Virus record (IMG/VR): IMGVR_UViG_2526164618_000009
DNA length: 11,667 bases
Reading direction: 5' to 3' (one strand)
DNA from: a virus
Lineage: Duplodnaviria; Heunggongvirae; Uroviricota; Caudoviricetes
A program made the position numbers and the translations under genes. Below the pieces are notes generated by a model, which did no database searches, was not told the DNA's origin, and saw only the letters and a list, made by a program, of their open reading frames with translations. Below, in pieces: positions 4,539 through 4,986 of the stretch (its first letter is position 1; every line of letters starts with the position of its first letter).

Positions 4539-4986
4539 TCAAAAATCATTATTGAAATTGTAGTCCATGAGATACTCATTTTTACAGGAGGGGCATTGAG
4601 TTTTCGTATATTTATCGCCTTCCTCGATAGGGAAAGGTTGCAATATAGATATTGCTCTCTTCGCAAAACATTCTGGACAAAAATACATGGTAATCTTGCC
4701 AGAGCTAGTATTGCACTGTCTGGCATACACAATCGTTCCAGTAATCAATTAGCGAGGTTCGCAGTCTTCACTTTGGAACTTAAACTTTTCTATCTCCGTG
4801 AGTTTTGCTTTGAGCGCAGCCTCATTGCTTTTAGAGATTGTCAGCTCATCAATGAGATGACAAATATTCAAGCTGAATGCTTGACAACTTAGAGTTTATT
4901 TCAGACACAGCGCGATCAACCTCAGCCTGAGTTTTTGCTTCATTGAATAATTTTAACATTGATGCAGTCTCTTTGAGAGCTGACAT
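4539..4986 (-). pseudogene. Decayed gene for a ~150-aa protein with N-terminal coiled-coil and C-terminal CxxC...CxxC zinc ribbon (one frameshift plus one in-frame stop)
   Basis: Minus strand: ATG at 4986 gives MSALKETASMLKLFNEAKTQAEVDRAVSEINSKLSSIQLEYLSSH, stop at 4849-4851. Coding continues in the +1 frame (HLIDELTISKSNEAALKAKLTEIEKFKFQSEDCEPR) to TAA at 4749-4751, followed in the same frame by the track ORF 4539-4748 (…YFCPECFAKR…TQCPSCKNEY…). Confidence 0.5.

Follow-up and report, generated by a model that had tools for sequence, protein, structure and literature searches.

The stretch of DNA analyzed here, referred to below as the window, comprises 11,667 nucleotides of IMG/VR virus record IMGVR_UViG_2526164618_000009 (Caudoviricetes), and all coordinates are positions in it. 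Its minus strand carries at positions 4539–4997 a broken gene which is very probably a pseudogene of the prophage-encoded antiphage family Rip1 (“ring interacting pore”), with an intact form acting in the Rip1 manner. Three minus-strand segments are left of the reading frame. Segment 1 (4849–4986, 45 amino acids (aa), ATG start) covers ancestral residues 8–50, i.e. the N-terminal helices, followed by two out-of-frame codons and a stop. The second open reading frame (ORF) begins at TTG 4871 and ends at a TAA codon (4749–4871, 40 aa, about 36 of them in the former frame); as judged from the repaired ORF and the AlphaFold model, segment 2 itself (4752–4857) encodes the remainder of the long helix up to Arg78 in the numbering of the 148-aa form. 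Segment 3 (4539–4748, 69 aa) encodes a beta-rich, zinc-ribbon-like C-terminal domain, which aligns to residues ~95–157 of Rip1 from Escherichia phage HK446 and harbors the motifs CPEC (4679–4668), SILQP (4649–4635) and CPSC (4595–4584) ahead of the stop codon TGA (4541–4539).

A preliminary description of this DNA had joined the three segments into one former gene starting at 4986, with a +1 shift near 4849 between the first two segments and an in-frame TAA between the last two. That they are a single former gene is confirmed by intact orthologs of 96–99% nucleotide identity, which cover all three, and homologs spanning the segments are in general numerous. The lesions were placed by aligning the window to four orthologous loci of Escherichia coli and four loci of Shigella. 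The frameshift is caused by an A inserted exactly at 4858, which is found only in the window among the nine aligned sequences; the position given before corresponds to the frame-1 stop that it creates (4851–4849). Segments 2 and 3 do share one frame and are split by TAA 4751–4749: a C>T change at 4751 turned CAA, the Gln79 codon of the intact orthologs, into a stop. When the A insertion and the C>T change are undone, a 148-aa ORF results whose sequence equals that of the intact 155-aa VL40 protein of E. coli over its final 148 residues.

The gene has three lesions, not two. The one missed earlier is a deletion of 10 nt relative to the ancestral long form, with its junction at 4994|4993, at a position where VL40, WGI31CT and PSJ-22 of E. 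coli have TTGATCTATC at the native start. The former start thus lies at 4997, not at 4986, and its ATG (4997–4995) now opens the mini-ORF ATG-TAT-TAG (4989–4997) left by the deletion. The copies of VL40, WGI31CT, PSJ-22, S. sonnei and Salmonella begin seven or eight codons upstream of segment 1, with MFDLSLA or MMFDLSLA. The long form is ancestral, since all 51 aligned family members (51/51) possess a conserved N-terminus beginning at or before the native start position. Conserved N-terminal residues ~2–7 were lost through the deletion, and any translation of the window copy would hinge on re-initiation at Met8. Each of the two lesions inside the ORF inactivates the gene: the TAA removes the entire ring-binding domain just past the helical half, and the frameshift interrupts the long helix midway. 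With its start deletion, the inserted A and the TAA, the window copy has no intact coding sequence, and it counts as a pseudogene of this family instead of a functional member. Annotation has broken the gene up, as was anticipated: Shigella records list separate “hypothetical proteins” of 45, 40 and 78 aa, and the exact 45-aa product of segment 1 is annotated in S. flexneri assemblies.

By megablast, the entire stretch is present in only four of 5,426 complete E. coli genomes. At the orthologous site an intact coding sequence is annotated in three of these four, with 148 aa in RMDEC465 and 155 aa in VL40 and WGI31CT. The PSJ-22 copy (locus L004, 2987–3454) bears two different nonsense mutations, an independent gene loss. 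More broadly, intact copies were found on 74 contigs of S. sonnei (156 aa) and on 97 contigs of E. coli (155 aa); a 156-aa S. flexneri form (P0073), otherwise intact, has Ser replaced by Phe inside the conserved SILQP motif. The window allele, with both lesions of the ORF, recurs in four NCBI assemblies, on four contigs that all match it at 100% identity across 448 nt, and a look-up reported the 45-aa fragment on nine contigs under the NCBI name Shigella flexneri. The 78-aa product (P0066, MSAL...CEPR), which has no frameshift and ends at the TAA, is far more frequent (515 contigs with source names S. flexneri or Shigella) and is present in the complete chromosomes CP026871, CP097828 and CP026772.

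The order of decay can be read from these alleles. The TAA is common to the three chromosomes just named and to KN150717, and column-by-column comparison demonstrates that all four of these Shigella loci (L018–L021) have the 10-nt deletion and the TAA and lack the A at 4858. Because they carry the TAA without the frameshift, the TAA came before the inserted A. By the same alignments the inserted A is the most recent lesion, one that arose in a sub-lineage. Of the three, the 10-nt deletion probably came first, a place in the order that we infer from E. coli RMDEC465, in which the same deletion occurs without the other two lesions. The KN150717 locus (L021) diverges completely from about window position 4691 onward (from about 3295 in its own numbering) and then continues into an IS3-family transposase gene, so that after the shared TAA it looks like a truncation by an insertion sequence (IS).

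For the family assignment the repaired protein was used. Scans against Pfam, NCBIfam and PADLOC gave nothing above threshold, and sub-threshold generic zinc-ribbon noise at most. Among the PHROGs it matches phrog_1244, a family of unknown function, along the full length (E=2e-35). By tblastn, homologs of 25–47% identity occur in phages PhiR29 and PhiR49, in Klebsiella Kp488x phages, in HK620, HK629 and HK630 (as HkaP) and in the Mu-like Rhodobacter phage RcWaterboi. A single-sequence search of a large protein database returned only 2 relatives; a profile of the phage homologs returned 58 proteins, nearly all of them “hypothetical proteins” of 150–170 aa from Enterobacterales and Rhodobacter. 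A remote-homology search of the reconstructed protein had been proposed in the preliminary description. Run as a profile search of solved structures, it leads to PDB entry 9oox, with E=2.6e-7 for the repaired window protein by itself. The 51-sequence profile matches this solved structure only: chain 9oox_L, “ring interacting pore 1 (Rip1)”, is found with E=4.4e-29, profile positions 4–150 aligning to chain residues 15–159. The entry is titled as Escherichia phage HK446 Rip1 in complex with Enterobacteria phage T6 small terminase.

Direct comparisons agree with the profile searches. BLASTP against the HK446 protein (HK446_037) gives 24% identity with E=3e-10, and hhalign of the family profile against gp30 of Pseudomonas phage JBD30 gives a probability of 99.4% with E=1.6e-21. 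Used as the query, the HK446 sequence finds the Pseudomonas Mu-like phages D3112, DMS3, JBD30 and MP38 as well as HkaP and RcWaterboi gene 10. The homology to the experimentally characterized Rip1 extends over the full length, and the window gene is a decayed member of this known, recently described family.

The predicted fold leads to the same family. The window copy being broken, an intact ortholog 88% identical to it (P0001) was modeled with AlphaFold2 from the 51-sequence alignment. The model (mean predicted local distance difference test score, pLDDT, of 88) consists of helices 4–23 and 27–79 followed by a beta-rich C-terminal domain. In a Foldseek search of the PDB it has just two significant matches, chains L and M of 9oox, with a probability of 1.00 and template modeling (TM) scores of 0.64 (query-normalized) and 0.77 (target-normalized). 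The predicted protomer thus has the fold known from Rip1, with long N-terminal helices and a compact C-terminal domain of the kind that contacts the phage ring. Of the architecture proposed earlier, the long helical N-terminal half and the C-terminal four-cysteine zinc-ribbon-like domain stand, as the modeled helices and strands demonstrate. In the alignments of 8 and of 51 sequences the four cysteines never vary and SILQP varies little or not at all; L122 and P124 are likewise invariant in the larger one. The combination of CxxC...CxxC with SILQ(P) is shared by HK446, JBD30 and the window. Membership in the Rip1 family is established by sequence together with this predicted fold.

Rip1 is a single prophage-encoded protein which is not toxic alone (PMC13434031, summarizing Patel et al. 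2026, Nature 651:1060; PMC13601566; PMC12908700). Phages of Pseudomonas escape through mutations in the portal, those of E. coli through mutations in the small terminase (PMC13434031). By cryo-electron microscopy, twelve Rip1 protomers encircle an 11-mer ring of the small terminase; the protein touches the phage ring with its C-terminal half, and a pore lined by the amphipathic helices of the N-terminus permeabilizes membranes and lyses the cell prematurely (PMC13434031).

The closest studied relative is Rip1 of HK446 (PDB 9oox, with the T6 small terminase). It resembles the ancestral window protein in length (164 vs 155 aa), in the helical N-terminal half joined to a C-terminal CxxC...CxxC domain with SILQ, in the full-length alignment and in the match of predicted fold; its gene occupies the same slot in the same orientation, antisense in the pL operon, behind the conserved leader described below. 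The two differ in that identity is only 24–28%, in a Gly/Ala-rich N-terminal extension of HK446 Rip1 which is absent from the clade of the window gene, and in the three lesions that make the window copy a pseudogene. The Rip1 proteins of Mu-like prophages of P. aeruginosa (JBD30 gp30 was examined; D3112, DMS3 and MP38 also have one) belong to the same family and are likewise encoded by a stand-alone antisense gene, and the mechanism described for them is the same ring-activated pore formation with premature lysis (PMC13434031). In contrast to the window gene, they are sited between the small and large terminase genes, and their escape mutations lie in the portal (PMC13434031); JBD30 gp30, moreover, has no enterobacterial sieB-type leader. 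In the JBD30 record its gene lies antisense between unannotated genes of 501 and 1,653 nt.

HkaP of HK620, HK630 and HK629 (phrog_1244) is a member of the same family, with 25% identity over 94% of the length. Its gene stands antisense in the slot between N/hkaQ and cIII behind the same leader and, unlike the window copy, is intact; the HK620 record annotates it as a “putative superinfection exclusion protein”. A literature search for an experimental function of HkaP found none; the one paper retrieved had only chosen the flanks of hkaP as places for insertions. The pL operon of HK446, HK620 and HK630 contains the gene in antisense orientation, on the side of N that faces cIII. The PhiR29 gene adjoins cI, with both of its neighbors on the other strand, and that of RcWaterboi runs antisense to the early operon in which it lies. 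SieB of lambda and P22 shares with the window gene the genomic slot, the antisense orientation and a homologous promoter/leader of ~100 nt. It differs in the Esc/sas regulatory arrangement described for it, and no sequence similarity to SieB was detected, no SieB family being among the Pfam matches of the repaired protein at E<=10.

Over ~100–110 nt upstream of the start the enterobacterial members retain conservation at the DNA level with proteins only ~25% identical to each other. In HK620 this leader is 84–89% identical to the region immediately upstream of sieB in lambda and P22, and the homology of the leader extends to the sieB promoter region of P22 and of the lambda type (mEp332). Within the homologous stretch, 38 nt before sieB, a record of P22 carries the annotation “promoter; sieB RNA start site”. 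In the window the conserved sieB-type promoter/leader occupies 4987–5105 on the minus strand, its function there being suggested by the homology. It contains on this strand a hairpin-like GCCTG...CAGGC (5099–5077), invariant in the leader alignment, the direct repeats CCCCAACAAnAAGAA (5058–5044 and 5025–5011) and a TATAAT box (5038–5033) that aligns to the P22 promoter at its -10 region. A putative ribosome-binding site, rich in purines, lies at about 5013–5004. In the leader alignment two CCCnACA repeats, 33 nt apart, are placed around the -10 box. Rfam holds no family for the leader on either strand, and the stems are invariant, which makes covariation uninformative on RNA structure.

Besides the window, the leader was located in L005 (3885–4000), L016 (3795–3910), L022 (1201–1292), L023 (344–439) and L024 (1501–1589). 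In the last of these, which is Shigella phage SfIV, it precedes in the same slot gene 36 (SfIV_36; L024 1606–2040), an unrelated, uncharacterized 144-aa ORF without the cysteine motif. By its position SfIV_36 is a candidate for a prophage-expressed defense or exclusion gene.

Leader and pseudogene together form a cassette of 597 nt (4509–5105, minus strand) between the dicF-like region and a ydfC remnant. In the Qin prophage of E. coli K-12 the flanks match (window 5437–5106 and 4508–4384), and 133 unrelated nucleotides stand where the cassette is in the window; these hold no remnant of the leader, so that the whole cassette is absent there. Since the flanks are conserved in Qin and the 597 nt take the place of the 133 unrelated ones, gene and leader form a discrete cassette between dicF and ydfC. 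The strand of the pseudogene is opposite to that of the early-left operon. The gene is a stand-alone prophage gene, as are its antisense homologs in lambdoid and Mu-like phages, and it resides in a Rac/Qin-like remnant.

This remnant, a lambdoid cryptic prophage of Shigella flexneri, is heavily decayed and riddled with IS elements; in it the pseudogene has an ipaH effector gene as a neighbor. Downstream of the pseudogene, positions 4384–4508 match the 3' end of K-12 ydfC and the region downstream of it with 92.8% identity. A stretch of ~60 nt within this part (4450–4510), just downstream of the pseudogene and, in K-12 Qin, downstream of ydfC, is found in 3,093 of the 5,426 complete E. coli genomes at 95–98% identity, often at multiple places per genome, and is far more widespread than the cassette. 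A chimeric IS-derived ORF of 193 aa (3658–4239, minus strand) with an HTH_23-like N-terminus and an HTH_Tnp_1 fragment looks like a fusion; it marks the breakpoint of the prophage sequence by the ydfC remnant at about 4384. Beyond it lies an intact IpaH-type E3 ligase of 571 aa with LRR_TTSS and NEL domains (1222–2937, plus strand), a type III secretion effector whose best E. coli matches are ipaH9.8 genes on pINV-like plasmids of enteroinvasive strains. It is flanked by IS1, with IS1 InsA at 405–680 (minus strand).

On the other side of the cassette the plus strand, which is that of the early-left operon, encodes just past the cassette a DicF-like small RNA (5219–5267; Rfam RF00039, full model length, E=1e-6, 38.8 bits and thus below the gathering score of 48). 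A terminator-like hairpin (5235–5262) overlaps it. Between this RNA and the gene of an Ash/Rha protein (5463–6095, plus strand) lies an STnc100-like element (5279–5432, plus strand; RF02076, E=5e-6, 36.5 bits, below the gathering score of 47). The remainder of the window consists of an IS3-family element (6348–7621, plus strand), a RecE fragment (8539–9963, plus strand), a second IS3-family element (10011–11167, minus strand) and a fragment of an IS66-family transposase (11218–11667, minus strand).

The intact protein of 155–156 aa would combine an N-terminal helical hairpin with a C-terminal four-cysteine beta domain carrying SILQP, and by homology to Rip1 of HK446 and P. aeruginosa it would be produced in the lysogen and be harmless alone. 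Late in superinfection, its C-terminal domains would dock around the oligomeric small terminase or portal ring of the invader. The ring would template an assembly of roughly twelve protomers, the N-terminal helices of which would form a membrane pore, and this pore would kill or lyse the cell ahead of the maturation of progeny (abortive infection). Expression of an intact gene in the lysogen would presumably come from the sieB-type promoter directly upstream; being antisense to the early-left operon, the gene would be active in the lysogen, with transcription from pL working against it when the resident phage itself grows lytically. Trigger, pore formation and promoter activity we infer for this clade by analogy with its studied relatives. 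In the lineage of the window the gene is dead, its decay probably having passed from the 10-nt deletion through the change of Gln79 to TAA to the inserted A at 4858.

As described in PMC10461980, sieB of P22 is expressed by the prophage and acts against superinfecting phage; in the literature its control is ascribed to a 105-nt antisense RNA, sas. It is possible that the opposite strand of the leader considered here encodes a sas-like antisense RNA as well. SieB, two Rip1-like clades and at least one ORF of unknown function are alternative cargos behind a homologous leader in a single lambdoid slot. Tentatively, defense genes may be exchanged at the lambdoid “sieB slot” under one shared promoter, with the leader providing shared regulation (a sas-like antisense RNA or a repeat-binding factor, for example) that would let the resident phage silence any cargo during its own lytic growth. 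If this is true, Rip1-like genes would stand under self-immunity control of the sieB type and other ORFs behind the leader would be candidate new defenses.

The preliminary description had likened the protein to small phage transcription factors combining a coiled coil with a C4 zinc ribbon, of the DksA/TraR or Ogr/Delta type. This identification has to be abandoned as extremely improbable: the superficial architecture alone, a helical N-terminus with CxxC...CxxC, fits it, whereas neither zf-dskA_traR nor Ogr_Delta appears among the Pfam matches at E<=10 or among the structural matches, significant matches of sequence and fold among solved structures are confined to Rip1, and the full-length homology to Rip1 is strong. 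The C-terminal half of Rip1, moreover, binds a protein ring and not RNA polymerase or DNA (PMC13434031). The lesions could in principle be errors of sequencing or assembly in an intact gene, single-base indels being a common class of error. The probability of this is practically negligible, as the insertion lies outside a homopolymer, the pseudogene is 100% identical in the four assemblies, and the TAA is found in four other Shigella loci, complete S. flexneri chromosomes included; the lesions and the precedence of the TAA over the insertion are established. That the locus is still functional, by recoding across the frameshift or stop or through a fragment (the 78-aa or the 45-aa helical piece) acting as a modulator like Esc, is very unlikely, if less so. 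The 78-aa product that ends in place of Gln79 has almost exactly the extent of the helical half, and 515 contigs named S. flexneri or Shigella carry it; P22 sieB does encode a shorter product, Esc, which protects P22 against self-exclusion by SieB. On the other hand, three independent lesions have accumulated and the native start is lost, the sub-lineage of the window has broken even the 78-aa ORF by the frameshift, the KN150717 copy looks IS-truncated, and PSJ-22 carries two nonsense mutations of its own. On inspection, the sequence around neither site offers a slippery or readthrough context, and the TTG of segment 3 is not preceded by a ribosome-binding site; the broad occurrence in S. flexneri may reflect clonal descent.

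A more serious question is whether the intact ancestor, having the Rip1 fold and serving in superinfection exclusion or abortive infection, had a trigger or an effector mode different from the ring-templated pore. The clade shares just 24–28% of its residues with HK446 Rip1 and occupies the sieB slot behind a sieB-type promoter, and the targets of Rip1 vary with the host, from the portal in Pseudomonas phages to the small terminase in E. coli phages (PMC13434031). We nevertheless consider this unlikely. A conserved mode of action is argued for because the full-length homology, the four invariant cysteines, the invariant or nearly invariant SILQ(P) and the predicted protomer fold, matching in both halves, all agree. 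Several points weigh against assigning the locus to Rip1 and its mode of action, and the first of them is the divergence just mentioned: at ~24% identity to the HK446 protein that was studied, the clade could have another trigger specificity and even another effector mode. The literature search found no published functional data for this clade or for HK620 HkaP, PADLOC (2023) has no model for a Rip1-like family, and the defining features of Rip1 were drawn from the review PMC13434031 and from the title of the PDB entry. By a simple hydrophobic-moment scan the amphipathicity of the N-terminus is only moderate, with moments (muH) of 0.3–0.4 over residues 13–42, comparable to HK446 and not striking. 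A two-hexamer sigma-70 scan of 4300–5500 found no promoter, so that the promoter is assigned here by homology to the one annotated for sieB in P22.

The pseudogene itself is a product of ordinary Shigella genome decay and represents no new kind of system. With its assignment to Rip1, fragments listed as unrelated “hypothetical proteins” in Shigella records gain a family, and HkaP of HK620 is placed in the Rip1 family by the same sequence links. The shared sieB-type leader is a simple sequence handle by which further cargo genes can be sought at this prophage hotspot, and the intact alleles of S. sonnei and E. coli are test cases for the target of an enterobacterial Rip1 clade ~25% identical to HK446 Rip1. 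For Shigella flexneri the locus provides a dated, stepwise case of the loss of an antiphage gene.

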